From an uncultured candidatus Brocadiaceae bacterium (lineage in GTDB: Bacteria; Planctomycetota; Brocadiia; SM23-32): DNA of 64,000 bases. The position numbers were made by a program, and so were the translations under genes. The notes beneath the pieces were generated by a model. The model was given only the letters and a program-made list of their open reading frames with translations. It was not told where the DNA came from and did not search any database. Numbering within the stretch: position 1 is the first letter of the stretch; the number at the start of each line of letters is the position of its first letter. Below are positions 35,873 to 46,311 of the stretch, one piece after another. The stretch covers positions 8,413-72,412 of the forward strand of contig CAZNGS010000009.1 of assembly GCA_964572825.1 (NCBI GenBank), written 5' to 3'.

Positions 35873-38323
35873 TCACACCAGTGCGACGCTGTAGTTGCCC
35901 CGGTGGCGATCCTTCAGCTCGCCTATCTTGGACTTGTTCCAGTTGGGGATGCGGCTGAAGTAGCCCACCACGCGCGTCATGCCGTAGACGTCCGGGCTGT
36001 GGCAGTGCCCGCAGGCCGGCTTGAGTCCGGGCGTGGAGCGATGGCATTGCCGGCAGATGGTGAACTCGGGGCTGATGGTGAGTTGGGCCGCCTGGGTGTT
36101 GCGATAGGTCTTCTCCACCAGGTTGTGGATGCTGGCGGCGGGCGGCCTTTCCTCGCCCACGAAGGCGTGAATGATGGCGCCGCTCTCGATGGCCCTGTGG
36201 AATTTGCTCTGCAGGCGGATTCGGGTCAGCAGGTCCACCGGCGCATCGGCGCGCAGGTGGATGCTGTTGGTGTAGTAGGCGTCGTCGTCGTCGGTGTCGC
36301 CGCAGACCACCTTCTCCGCCTCGGGGAAACGCTGCAGGTCCACCTTGGCCAGGCGGCGCGCGGCGCTCTCTGCCGGGGATTCCTCCAGCGCCACCCGCAT
36401 TCCCTGCTCTTCCCCCAGGGCTTTTGCCCGGAACTGCATGTGCCGCACCAGGTGGAGCCCTTCGCGCACGAGCTGCTCGTCCTCGTGCAGCTCCCGGCCG
36501 GTCAGGTAGAGCAGGGCCTCGTTCAGACCGATCAGCCCCACGATGTAGGTGGCCTTGTCCAGGTCCACGTAGGGCCGCCCGTCCGCCCCATCTTTGCCGA
36601 TCTCCCACAGGGGTTGGCTGGGGCCGGTCATCAGGGAGCCGATGAACCGGCGCTTCTGCCGATGGGCCCGGATGACCAGGTCGATCATCCGGTCCACCTC
36701 CCGGCGAAATGCCTCCATGTTGCCGGGCCCGGCCCGGTAGGCGGCCTGGGGCAGGTTGATGGTGACGTTCTGGAACCCGCAGAACCGCATGCTCTCCGGG
36801 TGCTGGATCATGTAGTCGTCGCGGATGGTGGTGCGCAGCCGGCAGCAGGCGCTCAGGGTCACCTCATCGCGGTCGAAGATGAAGTAGGGCACGCCGTTCT
36901 CGCTGGCTATCTGGCAGGCGTATTCGAGTATCTCCCGCTGGGCGGGGTCGCTCAGGGTAGCATCGCTGATGTGCAGGTCGCACTTGGGGAACGCGAACAC
37001 GTTGCCGTACTGGTCGCCGGCCCTCCAGACATCCAGCATGGCCTTGCAGAAGCGCTGGGCGGTCTTCTCGTAGTCACCGTAGGTGCGCCCGTCGTACTCG
37101 CCGCCCGGCCCGATGGCGGGAACGTCCTTGAGGTACTCGGGCACGCCGGTGTGGACGTTGAAGTCCAGGAACAGGGTCTGCCCGCCGCGGCTGAAGGCGT
37201 TCTGGGAGGAGCTGAATATCAGGTGCTGCGCCTCCTGCTCCATCTCCCCGTAGGACATACCCTCCACGTAGGGGGCGTAGAAGATGTTGATGTAGCCCAC
37301 GCCCAGGGCTCCGGCGTAGTATGCCTGCATGGAGGCCAGAAAGGTGTTCAGGTGCCCCGTCAGCGTGCGCGCGTGGCGGGCCGGCGCGCTGGAGGTGTCC
37401 AGGTTCTGCAGGTTCAGGCCGTATTTCTTCAGGTATTCCAGGCTATGGCTGGAGCAGTAAACCCGCGTGGGATAGCCCAGGTCGTGCAGATGTATCTCGC
37501 CCAGCATGTGGGCCTCGGCCACCTCGTCGGAGAAGACCTCCTGCAGGGCGTACTGCTTGAGCGTGTGCTCGGCCACCGACAGGTTGATGGCCTCCGGGTT
37601 GTTCTGGGCGATGTTGGCGTTTTCCTTGCTCTTGCTGCGCAGGAGCTGGTCCAGGTCGAACTTGGGCATTCCGACGACGGCCTGCTTTTTCAGCCGGGCG
37701 GTCAGGCCGCGTTCGAACAGCTCGTTGTCCACCAGTTCCCGGATCAGGCCGGTGGAGATGCGGGTGAGGCCGCTTTTCATCACGCGGCGCTCAACGGCGG
37801 AGGCGATCTCGCGGGCCACCCGCGGGGCCAGGTCGGCCTCGGTCTCCAGGGCCTGCGCGATCTTCCCCTTGTCCCACTCGGTCAGCCTGTCCTGGGTCTC
37901 GGTGTTGACCAGCAGCGCTATGTCGGTCGAGTTGCCGTTGCTGCGCACCGGCTTGCGCACCTGCAGGGACTGGCGGACGCGTGCCCGGCGGTCTCGATAC
38001 AGAATATACGCCTTGGCCGTCCTGGCGTGGCCGGTCTCGATCAGCACTTTTTCCACGACGTCCTGGATCTCCTCGATGGTCGGCGGGACGCCGTCGTAGT
38101 CCTTTTCCAGCAGGACGGTTACCATCGAGGCCAGCTCCTCGGCCAGGGCCCGGTCCTTCCCGCCGACGGCCTGCGCGGCCTTGAAGATGGCGTTGGCTAT
38201 CTTGGATTCATCGAAGGGCACGAGTCGGCCGTCCCGCTTTCTCACCTCTTTAATCCCGCGGGACGCGTCCCCCGTGTTTGCCAGATGTCCTTCCTCCTGT
38301 GCGGCGTCCGTCTCAACGGCCAT
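35873..38323 (-). CDS. nrdD: anaerobic ribonucleoside-triphosphate reductase (class III) with an N-terminal ATP-cone
   Basis: The ATP-cone reads VRKRDGRLVPFDESKIANAI. The C-terminus has a four-Cys zinc site (CRQCH...CGHCH) and a glycyl-radical motif (TRVVGYFSR). The ATG at 38323 has a GGGAGGG RBS. Confidence 0.9.
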   Translation of the reverse strand: MAVETDAAQEEGHLANTGDASRGIKEVRKRDGRLVPFDESKIANAIFKAAQAVGGKDRALAEELASMVTVLLEKDYDGVPPTIEEIQDVVEKVLIETGHARTAKAYILYRDRRARVRQSLQVRKPVRSNGNSTDIALLVNTETQDRLTEWDKGKIAQALETEADLAPRVAREIASAVERRVMKSGLTRISTGLIRELVDNELFERGLTARLKKQAVVGMPKFDLDQLLRSKSKENANIAQNNPEAINLSVAEHTLKQYALQEVFSDEVAEAHMLGEIHLHDLGYPTRVYCSSHSLEYLKKYGLNLQNLDTSSAPARHARTLTGHLNTFLASMQAYYAGALGVGYINIFYAPYVEGMSYGEMEQEAQHLIFSSSQNAFSRGGQTLFLDFNVHTGVPEYLKDVPAIGPGGEYDGRTYGDYEKTAQRFCKAMLDVWRAGDQYGNVFAFPKCDLHISDATLSDPAQREILEYACQIASENGVPYFIFDRDEVTLSACCRLRTTIRDDYMIQHPESMRFCGFQNVTINLPQAAYRAGPGNMEAFRREVDRMIDLVIRAHRQKRRFIGSLMTGPSQPLWEIGKDGADGRPYVDLDKATYIVGLIGLNEALLYLTGRELHEDEQLVREGLHLVRHMQFRAKALGEEQGMRVALEESPAESAARRLAKVDLQRFPEAEKVVCGDTDDDDAYYTNSIHLRADAPVDLLTRIRLQSKFHRAIESGAIIHAFVGEERPPAASIHNLVEKTYRNTQAAQLTISPEFTICRQCHRSTPGLKPACGHCHSPDVYGMTRVVGYFSRIPNWNKSKIGELKDRHRGNYSVALV

Positions 38324-38351
38324 TTTGGCCCTCCCGGTGGTCTCAGACGCG

Positions 38352-38855
38352 TCAATCCCTGTGGCGTGAACTGGTTTCTTCCGGCGCGGTCCCGTCATCG
38401 GCGGCGTCCCGCAACACCGTGCCCGCCTCTTCCACGAAGTCGCTGACGTCCTTGAATTCCTGATAGACGGAGGCGAAGCGGATGTACGCCACCTGGTCGA
38501 GCTCGCGCAGCCTGGTCATCACGAGCTGCCCGATCTTCCGGCTTGGCACTTCGCCCTCGTAGTGGCGGTGCAACTCCCGCTCGACGTCCTCGGCCAGCGC
38601 CCTGATGCGCTCGGCGGGGATGGGACGCTTGTAACATGCCTTGTTCAGGCCGGAGATGATTTTCTTCAGGCTGAAGTCCTCGCGGCCCCCGTCTTTCTTG
38701 ATCACCCGCAGGACGCTCTCTTCGATGCGCTCGTAAGTGGTGTAGCGGCGGCCGCAGGCGTTGCATTCCCGGCGGCGCTTCACGTAGGTCCCGTCGGCAC
38801 TGGGGCGGGAGTTGACGACCCGATCATCGTCCTTCTTGCAGTACGGGCACTGCAC
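38352..38855 (-). CDS. nrdR: transcriptional repressor NrdR
   Basis: MQCPYCKKDDDRVVNSRPS...CNACGRRYTTYERIEES is the NrdR zinc ribbon. An ATP-cone follows. The start is GTG with a GAGG RBS. Confidence 0.85.
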   Translation of the reverse strand: MQCPYCKKDDDRVVNSRPSADGTYVKRRRECNACGRRYTTYERIEESVLRVIKKDGGREDFSLKKIISGLNKACYKRPIPAERIRALAEDVERELHRHYEGEVPSRKIGQLVMTRLRELDQVAYIRFASVYQEFKDVSDFVEEAGTVLRDAADDGTAPEETSSRHRD

Positions 38856-40377: not shown

Positions 40378-41703
40378 TCAGGACCCCTCCTGGTCTCTGC
40401 GGATGCGTTCGCCCCAGAGCTGCTCCCGCCGGGAGAGGTCCGCCGGTTCGCCTCCCCGCCGGAAGGTGGCCGTGTGACCGGCGGCGATGTGCCTGGTGAC
40501 GTCGCCCGTTTTGGCCGAGACTTCTCCCTCGAAAACGGACACGGTCACCACGTCCGGCGTGGAGGCGATGAGCTCCGCCCGGGCCGAGCGAACGATGACG
40601 GTCACCGGCGTGGTGTTCACCTGGATGGACTTCTTGCCCCCGGGGTTCACCACCAGGGCCTCACCCTCATGCAGGCTGACCATCTCCGGGCCGTGCGCGG
40701 TCATGCGCCCGCCGCCCGCAAGGTACACCATCCGTCCGGCGCCGCCGGCCAGCTTCAGGCGGGCCACCGCGCCCTCCGGGACGCGGCAGACGACGTCCTG
40801 CCGCAGCTTCGTCGAATTCCCCCGCTCCACAAGCGCCGTCCCGGAGTTGACCTGGCCCTGCAGGGCCGTCACGGTGGCCACGGGGCGCAGGTTGGACCAG
40901 GTCACCATGGCCACGATGACCACCGCCACGGCACCGGAGAAACGCAGAAACGAAAACAGAGTCTCCCGCCCGGGGGCCGCCAGCAGGACGCCCAGGTCAT
41001 AGAGCACGATGAGGGTGACGGCCATCATGACCTGGGTCAGGGGGTCGGGGGGGGTCAGGAAGGCCCCCACCACGAAGGCCCCCAGGATGACGCCCTTGCG
41101 GATGGTGCGCAGGCTCTTGATGCTGACAATCTTCCACTTCAGCAAATGGTAAATGACCACGGGGGTCTGGAAGGCCAGGCCCATGGCGAAGACCATCAGG
41201 AAGAGCAGGGACAGGTAGGGACCGATCATCAGCACCGGCTCCAGCCCGGCGCCGGAGAGCCGGAGCAGGTAGCGGAAGGCGAAGGGGACGAAGAAGAAAT
41301 ACGCGAACGATACCCCCGCCAGGAAGCACGCGGCACAGGCCATGCCCAGCACGAGCATCTTCCGCCGCTCCCCCGGGAACAGGCCCGGCGAGACGAACGC
41401 CCACACCTGGTAGATGATGAACGGGGCGCAGACAATCAGCGCAACAACCGCGCAGGCGATCAACTGCGCCCAGAGGGGCTCGAAGTACTTGCTGAACTTC
41501 AGGGTGGTGTCCAGCTCCAGCGCCCTGGTCGCCTGGACGTGGGGGTACTTGAGGACCTCGATAACCTCCTGCCGCACGATCAGCAACGCCACGGCCACGA
41601 CCGCGAAGGCGACGATGCACAGGATGATGCGTCGGCGCAGCTCCTCAAGGTGCTCCCCCAGGCTCATGACGGCGCCGAACTGCTCCTGCTGGTCCGTGGC
41701 CAC
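40378..41703 (-). CDS. tatC: twin-arginine translocase subunit TatC fused to a C-terminal FecR-like domain
   Basis: The N-terminal 270 aa are TatC (MSLGEHLEELRRRIILCIVAF..., six TM helices). An extra hydrophobic helix follows. After it, about 140 aa match the FecR fold pattern (RLKLAGGAGRMVYLAGGGRMTAHG...VTVIVRSARAELIASTPDVVTVSVFEGEVSA). The start is GTG. Confidence 0.75.
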   Translation of the reverse strand: MATDQQEQFGAVMSLGEHLEELRRRIILCIVAFAVVAVALLIVRQEVIEVLKYPHVQATRALELDTTLKFSKYFEPLWAQLIACAVVALIVCAPFIIYQVWAFVSPGLFPGERRKMLVLGMACAACFLAGVSFAYFFFVPFAFRYLLRLSGAGLEPVLMIGPYLSLLFLMVFAMGLAFQTPVVIYHLLKWKIVSIKSLRTIRKGVILGAFVVGAFLTPPDPLTQVMMAVTLIVLYDLGVLLAAPGRETLFSFLRFSGAVAVVIVAMVTWSNLRPVATVTALQGQVNSGTALVERGNSTKLRQDVVCRVPEGAVARLKLAGGAGRMVYLAGGGRMTAHGPEMVSLHEGEALVVNPGGKKSIQVNTTPVTVIVRSARAELIASTPDVVTVSVFEGEVSAKTGDVTRHIAAGHTATFRRGGEPADLSRREQLWGERIRRDQEGS

Positions 41704-41755
41704 GCTTCAGGCTCCGAAGTGGTCGTCGAAAAGGAGAAAACCGGGTGAAGGATGC

Positions 41756-41785
41756 ATTATACAGGCCCCGCGCGAAGGGCCAAAG
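41756..41785 (-). promoter_or_regulatory. candidate extended -10 promoter (TGtATAAT) for tatC
   Basis: The minus strand reads TGTATAAT (41763-41756) with a weak -35 about 15-16 nt upstream. It lies about 55 nt upstream of the GTG start. Confidence 0.3.
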
Positions 41786-44333: not shown

Positions 44334-45842
44334 TCACTCCTGTTGGGGCCGAAGCCCGTCCTCTCCCAGTGATTCGTCGTCCTCTGACTCTTCCGTTTCG
44401 GGGCTGAGCTTCTCCAGCCGCTGCGGATTGAGCCCCAGCGTTTCCTCGGCCTTCAGGAACGCCTGCATCAGCGGCTTGTCCTCCAGGGCCTCCTTCACTT
44501 CTTCCGGGTCATCCGCTACGGCCAGGAGCTGCCGATACTTGACCTCGTCCATACCCTCCGGCAGGTCGTGCCGGGGAGCCGGGGCCGCTTCGGCGTTGCC
44601 CTTATTGTTCGACAGCTTCTCCCGCATCCTTCGCAGGGCGCCGGTTGTCGCCCCGCTGCCGGACGGGGAGGAAGCTTGCTGCTCCCGCGCGGGGCCCGAT
44701 GGGGACGGAGTGCCGGTGCCCTCCCGCACCGCGCCCAACGCCTCCGCCAGGGGAACCAGGTCGGCCATCCGGCACATGCGTATCACGGCCAGCTCCAGCG
44801 CGATGCGGCCCGTGCTCTCCCGCCGGGCCCGGAGGGCCGCTTCTCGCAGGAGCTGGATCATGTAGGTAAGCTGATCCTCCGAAAACGCGCCGCTCTGGCG
44901 GGTGAGCGTCTCGGCGCCCGCCGCCGAACCGGCCAGCAGCGGCGCGTCGGCCCCCGCGCAGGAGGCCACCAGCAGGTCGCGCACGTATTCGGCCGTCTGC
45001 CGGGTAAAATCTTCAATGGAGGTCCCCCCGCTCAACGCCTCGTCCAGCACCTCCAGCGCGGCGGCGGGGTCCTCCTCCGCCACGGCATCGATCAGCCGCG
45101 TCAGCACGCGCGTATCCACCGCCCCCAGCACGGCCAGCACGTCGGGCATGCGTACGTGGTCGCCGAACGCCGCCAGCTGGTCCAGCGCGCCCAGGGCGTC
45201 CCGCATGCTCCCCCGCGCGGCGCGGGCAATGGCGGGCAGACCGCCCTGCTCGACCTGCAGCCCTTCGTTCTCGCACACGCCCCGCAGGGCATTCACCAGC
45301 TCCGCGTCCGAGATGCGGCGGAAGTCGAACCGCTGACAGCGGCTCCTGACGGTTTCGGGAACGCGCTGCGGATCGGTGGTGGAGAAGATGAACTTCACGT
45401 GCGGGGGCGGTTCTTCCAGGGTCTTCAGCAGTGCGTTGAAGGCCTCCGTGGTCAGCATGTGGACCTCGTCGATGTAATAGACCTTGAAGCGGCTTCGGGC
45501 CGGGGACAGGCCCGCGTTCTGCCGCAGCTCCCGCACGTTGTCGATGCCCCGGTTGGAGGCCCCGTCGATCTCCAGCACGTCGATGTCGTTTCCGGCCGCG
45601 ATGCGCCGGCACGCGTCGCACTCGCAGCAGGGCTTGGGCGTGGGGCCCTGCTCGCAGTTGAGGGCCTTCGCCAGGATGCGGGCCACGGTCGTCTTGCCGA
45701 TGCCGCGGGAGCCGCAGAACAGGTAGGCGTGGGCGACGCGGTCCGTGCGCACGGCGTTCTGGAGCGTCCGCGTGACGTGCTGCTGCCCGATCACGTCCTC
45801 GAAGCGCTGAGGGCGGTATTTGCGGGCGAAGACGACGTACAT
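44334..45842 (-). CDS. dnaX: DNA polymerase III subunit gamma/tau
   Basis: MYVVFARKYRPQRFEDVIGQQHV...GSRGIGKTTVARILAKALNCE..CCECDACRRI..DEVHMLT is the DnaX signature. The start is the ATG at about 45842. The ORF-track TTG-extended version runs into the SRP RNA. My line-label counting placed these codons 1 nt higher, so coordinates carry about 1 nt of uncertainty. Confidence 0.9.
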   Translation of the reverse strand: MYVVFARKYRPQRFEDVIGQQHVTRTLQNAVRTDRVAHAYLFCGSRGIGKTTVARILAKALNCEQGPTPKPCCECDACRRIAAGNDIDVLEIDGASNRGIDNVRELRQNAGLSPARSRFKVYYIDEVHMLTTEAFNALLKTLEEPPPHVKFIFSTTDPQRVPETVRSRCQRFDFRRISDAELVNALRGVCENEGLQVEQGGLPAIARAARGSMRDALGALDQLAAFGDHVRMPDVLAVLGAVDTRVLTRLIDAVAEEDPAAALEVLDEALSGGTSIEDFTRQTAEYVRDLLVASCAGADAPLLAGSAAGAETLTRQSGAFSEDQLTYMIQLLREAALRARRESTGRIALELAVIRMCRMADLVPLAEALGAVREGTGTPSPSGPAREQQASSPSGSGATTGALRRMREKLSNNKGNAEAAPAPRHDLPEGMDEVKYRQLLAVADDPEEVKEALEDKPLMQAFLKAEETLGLNPQRLEKLSPETEESEDDESLGEDGLRPQQE

Positions 45843-45924
45843 CGGCGCTCTCTCGGTCAGGGAAGTTGGGCCGTGCGCTCCGATCGGCCCTGCCTTCCCG
45901 GGCAGCAACCCCCGAGCGACTCGG

Positions 45925-46025
45925 GGCAAGCAACCCCACGGCAGTCCGGGGTACTGCTTATGGCTGCTGGCTTCCGCCCCTGACCAGGTTCACAGCCGCC
46001 CGGCTCCATGGGACCCACCCGTCAA
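45925..46025 (-). ncRNA. ffs: signal recognition particle RNA (small bacterial 4.5S type), ends approximate
   Basis: The minus strand reads ...CCCAUGGAGCCGGGCGGCUGUGAACCUGGUCAGGGGCGGAAGCCAGCAGCCAUAAGCAGUACCCCGGACUGCCGUGGG... It contains the domain IV signature GUCAGG-GGC-GGAA-GCC-AGCAGC with a GGAA tetraloop. Flanking complementary arms pair CCCAUGG/CCGUGGG and CCGGG/CCCGG. It sits immediately upstream of dnaX, the conserved genomic position. Confidence 0.6.
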
Positions 46026-46311
46026 TGACGCCCGGGCAGTCCTGTACCACGGGGAGGCAAACAAGCCTCACGAAGTGGTCAGCCCTGCTGGAGCGGTTTG
46101 CAGGTTACAGGGCACCGCTAGCGCCCCGCTTAGCACGGCCCGCGTCTCGTCGGAATCTTACATCCGTCCGGTGCACGGTGGGCCATCCGGTAAGCTATCA
46201 CAGCCGCCCTCCACGCGCAACCGAAACCGCCCCCGGCCACCTTCCATTTGACCCGGCCGCCCGAGATGCGTATGCTGTTCGACCATCCGATTTTGTGGCG
46301 GGGAATATAGC

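Follow-up and report, generated by a model that had tools for sequence, protein, structure and literature searches.

A TatC protein with a predicted periplasmic FecR-like tail in a Candidatus Brocadiaceae bacterium: a divergent member of a known fusion family

Why should a core subunit of the twin-arginine translocase (Tat) carry a FecR-like domain? This question is raised by a tatC gene in a stretch of 64,000 nucleotides (the window) from contig CAZNGS010000009.1 of an uncultured Candidatus Brocadiaceae bacterium (assembly GCA_964572825.1). The gene (40378..41703, minus strand) is a complete coding sequence of 441 amino acids plus stop, designated here tatC-FecR, which was identified from the list of open reading frames (ORFs) and their translations. 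A previous reading of this DNA, made from its letters alone (the sequence-only reading), had taken the interval as one ORF. This holds, since the frame is uninterrupted over 441 codons, and the ORF list gives the strand as minus. The same reading considered the fusion to be an undescribed architecture with a possible sensor or anti-sigma-like function. We found that the protein is a divergent new member of a known, functionally uncharacterised fusion family, in which the tail probably serves a working TatC rather than a signalling pathway.

The N-terminal part of the protein was assigned to TatC (residues ~13–243; 40975..41667, minus) with six transmembrane (TM) helices, based on hidden Markov models (HMMs), Foldseek, and residue alignment. 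PF00902 matched residues 17–229 (E = 2e-54; 184.9 bits, cutoff 25.1) and TIGR00945 matched residues 16–235 (180.6 bits, cutoff 132.7). An AlphaFold2 model of the full-length protein, for which 64 homologues were used as input, showed the six-helix core as expected (mean predicted local distance difference test [pLDDT] 87, predicted TM-score [pTM] 0.77). Searching with this model, Foldseek retrieved E. coli TatC in the TatBC cryo-electron microscopy (cryo-EM) structures (9e01, 9dzz) and Aquifex TatC (4b4a, 4hts), with E values between 5e-13 and 2e-10 and TM-scores, relative to the target, between 0.80 and 0.87. The earlier description of a canonical TatC with six TM helices is therefore correct, but the core ends at about residue 243 and not, as had been proposed, at about residue 270.

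Functional residues were placed by HMMER alignment to E. coli TatC. E21 and E112 of the window protein correspond to E15 and E103 of the twin-arginine signal-peptide site; P54, F103, and D220 to the conserved functional residues P48, F94, and D211; and T217 and Q224 to T208 and Q215, which belong to the polar cluster that binds TatA/B. Across the 64-member family alignment, each of these positions varies little or not at all (E21, E112, and T217 invariant, Q224 near-invariant), which shows that the TatC core is under normal functional constraint. Judged from these features, the gene encodes a working TatC. Weak, sub-threshold matches to PF24378 (DUF7534) were also observed at residues ~209–234 (TM5–TM6) in the window protein and in 30 of the 64 homologues; they probably reflect spurious similarity between TM segments and no real domain.

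Beyond the core, the sequence-only reading had noticed an extra hydrophobic helix. Both a hydrophobicity scan and the AlphaFold2 model place a seventh TM helix (TM7) of 27 residues here (residues 246–272; 40888..40968, minus), whose hydrophobic core is FSGAVAVVIVAMVTW (residues 255–269). Conserved positions within TM7 include F252, F255, G257, and W269, followed by P274, and the helix is joined to TM6 by a turn of 3–4 residues with a conserved A-P-S/G-R sequence. Canonical TatC proteins have both termini in the cytoplasm. Since the window protein adds one more span to such a core, the chain after TM7 should lie outside the cytoplasm. The net charge across the family falls from +1.9 in the 12 residues before TM7 to -0.06 in the 12 residues after it, which agrees with the positive-inside rule. 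In addition, Phobius, TMHMM, and HMMTOP all placed the FecR domain of the Kuenenia homologue outside the cytoplasm (PMC2881027). The FecR-like tail is thus predicted to be periplasmic and to begin just after a TM helix, as had been suggested. We are highly confident in this identity and topology.

The tail consists of an all-beta domain of 142 residues (residues 274–415; 40459..40884, minus) and a C-terminal helix (residues 424–439; 40387..40434, minus), the latter supported by the AlphaFold2 models and by conservation. The model of the tail (pLDDT 94) has the fold that defines the CJM subdomain of FecR-type regulators, i.e., a twisted beta-solenoid-like structure with two beta-sheets. The Pfam FecR family (PF04773) matched residues 339–395, scoring 22.4 bits on the whole protein and 24.7 bits on the isolated tail (gathering score 24). 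The copies of Kuenenia sp. and Brocadia score near this value as well (22.3 and 23.8 bits), and PF04773 matched 32 of the 64 homologues at E ≤ 0.01 (best 9.6e-9). The assignment would thus be borderline for the window protein alone and appears solid at the family level. For the C-terminal domain, Foldseek pointed to 4m0n (E = 1e-4), a structure of the FecR-family protein BDI_1681 which was also the best match in PDB of a profile built from the tail (A2; E = 0.0017). The nearest non-TatC relatives of the tail are PF04773 proteins (38–48 bits). A word-indexed protein search with A2 retrieved just four non-TatC FecR proteins, all of them weak matches, and no member of the TatC-FecR family itself; its candidate list was probably filled by low-complexity high-GC words. 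Based on the Pfam matches in the family, the AlphaFold2 models, and the fold searches, the assignment of the tail as FecR is now firm, and the proposal of a FecR-fold domain of about 140 residues was not overturned, as the tail is FecR-like.

Two sequence features of the tail deserve description. A GGEPxD motif (G417, G418, and P420) precedes the C-terminal helix, in which W430 is near-invariant, and this GGEPxD...W arrangement is kept in the anammox relatives too. The best-conserved non-glycine feature is an RRG motif, with R-G present in 90% of the family. At this position (residues 302–304; 40792–40800, minus), the window protein has R-Q-D and its closest relative K-R-D, and the sub-lineage of the window protein may have relaxed or altered the function of this surface.

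To what extent is the fusion conserved? Public data contain an identical protein (P0001) in two places, an NCBI contig of 90.6 kb and a Logan assembly. The 63 further cluster representatives of the family (64 clusters at 90% identity) have 421–475 amino acids and share 40–74% identity with the window protein at 94–100% coverage; TM7, the beta domain, and GGEPxD...W are retained throughout the alignment. Among the 20,981 TatC matches obtained when 1.84 billion representatives were searched exhaustively with the profile of the full alignment (A1), ~25 clusters at 50% identity covered the fused protein from end to end. A genome scan with the full alignment was dominated by ordinary proteobacterial TatCs and recovered only two fusion loci (L002 and L003).

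The anammox clade surfaced only with a profile of six lower-GC fusion members (A3), which detected 693 relatives at E ≤ 1e-20. All 120 of the matches listed have ~420–480 amino acids and at least 94% query coverage, most of them being annotated with both PF00902 and PF04773, and the sources named include Candidatus Brocadia, Scalindua rubra, Kuenenia sp., Anammoxibacter, Brocadiales, and Brocadiia. The Brocadia fusions include one in the 4.08 Mb genome of B. pituitae. BLASTP aligned residues 11–439 of the window protein with the TatC of Kuenenia sp. (29% identity over 437 amino acids, E = 5e-57), and comparison of the tails of the window family and the anammox proteins by hhalign gave a probability of 99.6% (E = 4e-24). 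These data indicate one ancient fusion, neither an artefact nor a recurrent event. As it has been kept from the high-GC lineage to the anammox genera, the fusion is a long-standing feature of the class Candidatus Brocadiia. Five independent TatC-FecR proteins of 633–638 amino acids (P0132 and P0274–P0277) were also observed, with ~160 extra N-terminal residues that have no Pfam match and reflect either a start site that was mis-called in every case or an additional extension.

Contrary to the sequence-only reading, this architecture has been described. In an analysis of Kuenenia stuttgartiensis, whose Tat components are single-copy, Medema et al. (2010; BMC Genomics 11:299, PMC2881027) reported that the TatC protein kustc0286 (CAJ71031) bears a C-terminal FecR domain (PF04773) which is predicted to be non-cytoplasmic. 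The pairing was unique at the time according to these authors, who named the domain signal-transducing and speculated that the pairing takes part in directing proteins to the anammoxosome. Besides this published case, annotated entries in databases, which number in the hundreds, also refute the idea of an undescribed architecture. In the library searched, no second paper names both TatC and the anammoxosome, and the other papers listed that name TatC and FecR seem, by title or abstract, not to concern the fusion. What is new here is modest: the fusion reaches lineages with a guanine-cytosine (GC) content of 64–70%, unlike the known anammox genomes.

What might the tail do? In the explanation we favour, TatC acts as usual as signal-peptide receptor and core of the translocase, the chain crosses the membrane a seventh time, and the FecR/CJM-type beta-solenoid-like domain with its short helix is displayed on the periplasmic (trans) side. 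There the tail would most likely provide the Tat receptor complex with a module for protein–protein contacts, through self-association of tails above the TatC oligomer or by docking a periplasmic partner. This would parallel the periplasmic inserts in the atypical TatCs of Myxococcus and Nitratifractor. Functional TatCs with periplasmic additions are known, and the insert of the Myxococcus protein forms a homotrimer (PMC13323110). In Kuenenia, the fused protein is the only TatC (PMC2881027) and must therefore carry general Tat transport.

Several observations weigh against this explanation. In PupR, CJM consists of two seven-stranded sheets in a twisted beta-solenoid-like arrangement and is followed by STN, and binding of the signalling domain of the transducer requires both (PMC7186176). 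The CJM of sigma regulators binds only together with STN (PMC7186176), but of the two subdomains only a CJM-like one is present in the window protein, where it is followed by ~26 residues that include the helix at 424–439. In addition, the tail evolves faster than the core (37% identity to the window protein, compared with 56% for the core), and RRG is degenerate in the window protein. On balance, we consider a working TatC with a trans-side contact module the probable interpretation, with appreciable room for doubt, and the specific role of the tail is a weakly supported part of it. A more specific version, in which the tails of neighbouring TatC subunits come together in the periplasm as a cap that covers the Tat receptor complex and gates or checks transport from the trans side, is tentative and on present evidence unlikely. 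Such a cap could hold an emerging substrate or signal peptide, or recruit a maturation factor. If it exists, it would be a trans-side control element of Tat without a counterpart in model organisms, and the FecR/CJM fold would have a new use outside signalling.

Other explanations were compared with this one. An artefact, in which two adjacent genes were merged by a frameshift in sequencing or by the loss of a stop codon, can practically be dismissed: besides the intact frame in the window, the same single-ORF layout occurs in hundreds of independent assemblies (NCBI, JGI, ENA, and Logan), some of which are complete genomes, and all full-length relatives surveyed carry the fusion intact, with neither the frameshift nor the split gene that could have undone the earlier reading. 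The FecR-like domain might instead sense a periplasmic or outer-membrane signal and either gate Tat or relay the signal inward via TatC. Here the region N-terminal of TM7, up to residue ~243, is TatC, and no anti-sigma domain was detected by Pfam and TIGR scans; an STN/FecR_C subdomain is absent, the ~26 residues after the beta domain having no Pfam match; and neither the window nor any of six related loci has a gene for an extracytoplasmic function (ECF) sigma factor or a TonB-dependent transducer next to tatC-FecR. Gly-Thr self-cleavage occurs in some FecR-type regulators such as FoxR, although it is not universal among them; after residue 270, the 64 homologues show no G-[T/S/C] dipeptide that 30% or more of them share. 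Since the window protein lacks each of the anti-sigma features tested, we infer that it is not an anti-sigma factor, and the sensor or anti-sigma-like idea finds no support. Signalling in the wider sense draws on the sigma regulators of cell-surface signalling, the proteins otherwise best known for this fold (PMC7186176), on the position of the tail after a single TM helix, as in FecR, and on the term chosen by Medema et al. (PMC2881027); we regard it as distinctly unlikely.

Alternatively, TM7 and the tail may replace or supplement TatB in a minimal TatA–TatC system and stabilise the receptor complex. Kuenenia has a single TatA/B-family gene (PMC2881027). Neither tatA nor tatB is adjacent to tatC-FecR in the window or in the loci examined, and both a regular-expression search and a small TatA/B HMM found no TatA/B-like ORF in the 64 kb (best E = 0.89), in agreement with the sequence-only reading. 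The turn of 3–4 residues would moreover force TM7 to lie beside the TM5/TM6 face, where TatA/B bind (PMC13323110). However, the polar cluster is kept (T217 and Q224), which suggests that a separate TatA/B helix docks there, neither a polar residue nor a hinge motif like those of TatB is present in TM7, and TatB acts mainly by its cytoplasmic amphipathic helix, whereas the tail lies on the opposite side of the membrane. This makes a TatB-like role quite improbable. The published idea, that the FecR domain helps steer Tat substrates to the anammoxosome (Medema et al. 2010), is consistent with the first observation of the fusion in Kuenenia and with the presence of Brocadia, Scalindua, Kuenenia, and Anammoxibacter among the matches listed. 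On the other hand, the fusion is also present in the window (66.5% GC) and in relatives with 64–70% GC, compared with 38–46% in the anammox loci, and these high-GC relatives are labelled only as Planctomycetota, Candidatus Brocadiia, or Planctomycetes bacterium SM23_32. Its occurrence in these lineages weakens the sorting hypothesis, which we consider very improbable, and points to an origin of the fusion that is older and broader than the anammox lifestyle.

The start region of the gene was also inspected. The start codon is a GTG at 41703, and a Shine-Dalgarno-like GGAG (41712..41715, minus; direct read) lies 8 nt upstream of it. The MSLGEHLEELR sequence with which the protein had been thought to begin is present, but at residue 13, downstream of the GTG, where an alternative in-frame ATG is located (41667). 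Further upstream, a consensus scan and direct read identified a sigma-70-like site (41756..41783, minus) composed of TTGGCC, a 16-nt spacer, and an exact TATAAT (41761–41756, minus), with 10 of 12 consensus matches compared with 0.1 such sites expected in shuffled sequences. This site is a promoter candidate by consensus match alone. It had been described as an extended -10 element. The TATAAT is indeed a good promoter-like hexamer, but in TGTATAAT (41763–41756, minus) the TG abuts it directly and so misses the canonical TGnTATAAT register of an extended -10.

The genes around tatC-FecR in the window are nrdD, nrdR, a hexapeptide transferase gene, rpoN (encoding sigma-54, not an ECF factor), recR, ybaB, and dnaX. 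The order dnaX-ybaB-recR-rpoN-(ridA)-tatC recurs in two related loci, L082 (5198–11287) and L083 (5210–11338), and recR-rpoN-(ridA)-tatC in a third, L084 (5794–11308). In all three loci, a RidA/YjgF gene which the window does not have is located between rpoN and tatC on the opposite strand, and in L084 an Apiosidase gene is located there as well. In the anammox relatives (L085 and L086), ribH-nusB-ftsY adjoin tatC, and in a third lineage unrelated genes are found beside tatC-FecR. No partner gene conserved across the class was found among the window and the six related loci.

A bacterial large signal recognition particle (SRP) RNA (RF01854, 140 bits, full length) was detected at 45871–46138 (minus), directly upstream of dnaX, and completes a minus-strand block ffs-dnaX-ybaB-recR-rpoN-tatC. 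Because this RNA overlaps the 5' end of the called dnaX ORF (44334..45929), the true start of dnaX must be further downstream. At 35873–38855 (minus), the anaerobic ribonucleotide reductase gene nrdD (ATP-cone and NRDD, E = 7e-122) is preceded by nrdR, and the two called ORFs overlap by 47 nt. The presence of nrdD suggests an anaerobic or facultative source organism.

Additional TatC appendages were observed among the proteins collected. A second, apparently larger class (P0070, P0101, and P0155–P0237) contains proteins of ~435–472 amino acids with an R/K-rich linker, a TM7, and a tail of ~170 amino acids which ends in a conserved W-rich helix and has no Pfam match in the members scanned. We considered whether these TatCs of ~450 amino acids might be divergent FecR fusions and rejected this possibility, as the tails are unrelated (hhalign probability 0.15%, no Pfam match). 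The ~170-residue tail is another uncharacterised trans-side appendage of TatC. Other TatCs (P0105, P0108, P0115, P0071, and P0092) have a largely helical-looking insert of 70–250 amino acids in the first periplasmic loop (TM1–TM2), similar to what is seen in the TatC of Nitratifractor salsuginis that was studied by cryo-EM (9e02).

The mechanism by which Tat translocates folded proteins is a matter of debate, and natural TatC variants with periplasmic modules have already yielded TatBC structures (PMC13323110). The use of a TatC with a FecR fold by an entire class to which the anammox bacteria belong may be regarded as a natural experiment on the trans face of the translocon. Its spread in high-GC lineages argues against anammoxosome sorting, the only functional idea published so far. 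The TatC-FecR family is a worthwhile target for studies of the Tat mechanism.

Among known systems, the closest to the window protein are Kuenenia kustc0286 and its orthologues in Brocadia, Scalindua, and Anammoxibacter (~440–450 amino acids), whose domain order is identical (TatC, TM7, and a non-cytoplasmic FecR). They differ from the window protein in sequence (29% identity for Kuenenia sp.), in GC content (38–46% in the anammox loci, 66.5% in the window), and in gene neighbourhood (ribH/nusB/ftsY, compared with rpoN/recR/dnaX), in addition to the degenerate RRG of the window protein. The CJM of FecR-type regulators (PupR, 6OVM/6OVK; BDI_1681, 4M0H/4M0N; PF04773) shares ~20% identity with the tail; these regulators have an anti-sigma domain, STN, and ECF/TonB partner genes, whereas the window protein does not.

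Canonical TatCs (E. coli, 9DZZ; Aquifex aeolicus, 4B4A/4HTS) share 33–34% identity with the core over ~230 residues according to Foldseek, with key functional residues kept, but end in the cytoplasm soon after TM6, whereas the window protein runs on for ~200 residues more. The atypical TatCs of Myxococcus xanthus (9E03) and Nitratifractor salsuginis (9E02), like the window protein, combine a functional core with an extra folded module in the periplasm. Their modules were not matched by the tail profile A2 in the PDB sequence search. The Myxococcus protein was considered as a precedent for a C-terminal extension and rejected: Foldseek aligned 366 columns, but the sequence matches are split and the addition is a loop insert (PMC13323110). 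Both modules are inserted in periplasmic loops and need no extra TM helix, whereas that of the window protein is C-terminal and depends on TM7. In Myxococcus, the homotrimer formed by the module sits over the TatBC complex (PMC13323110).

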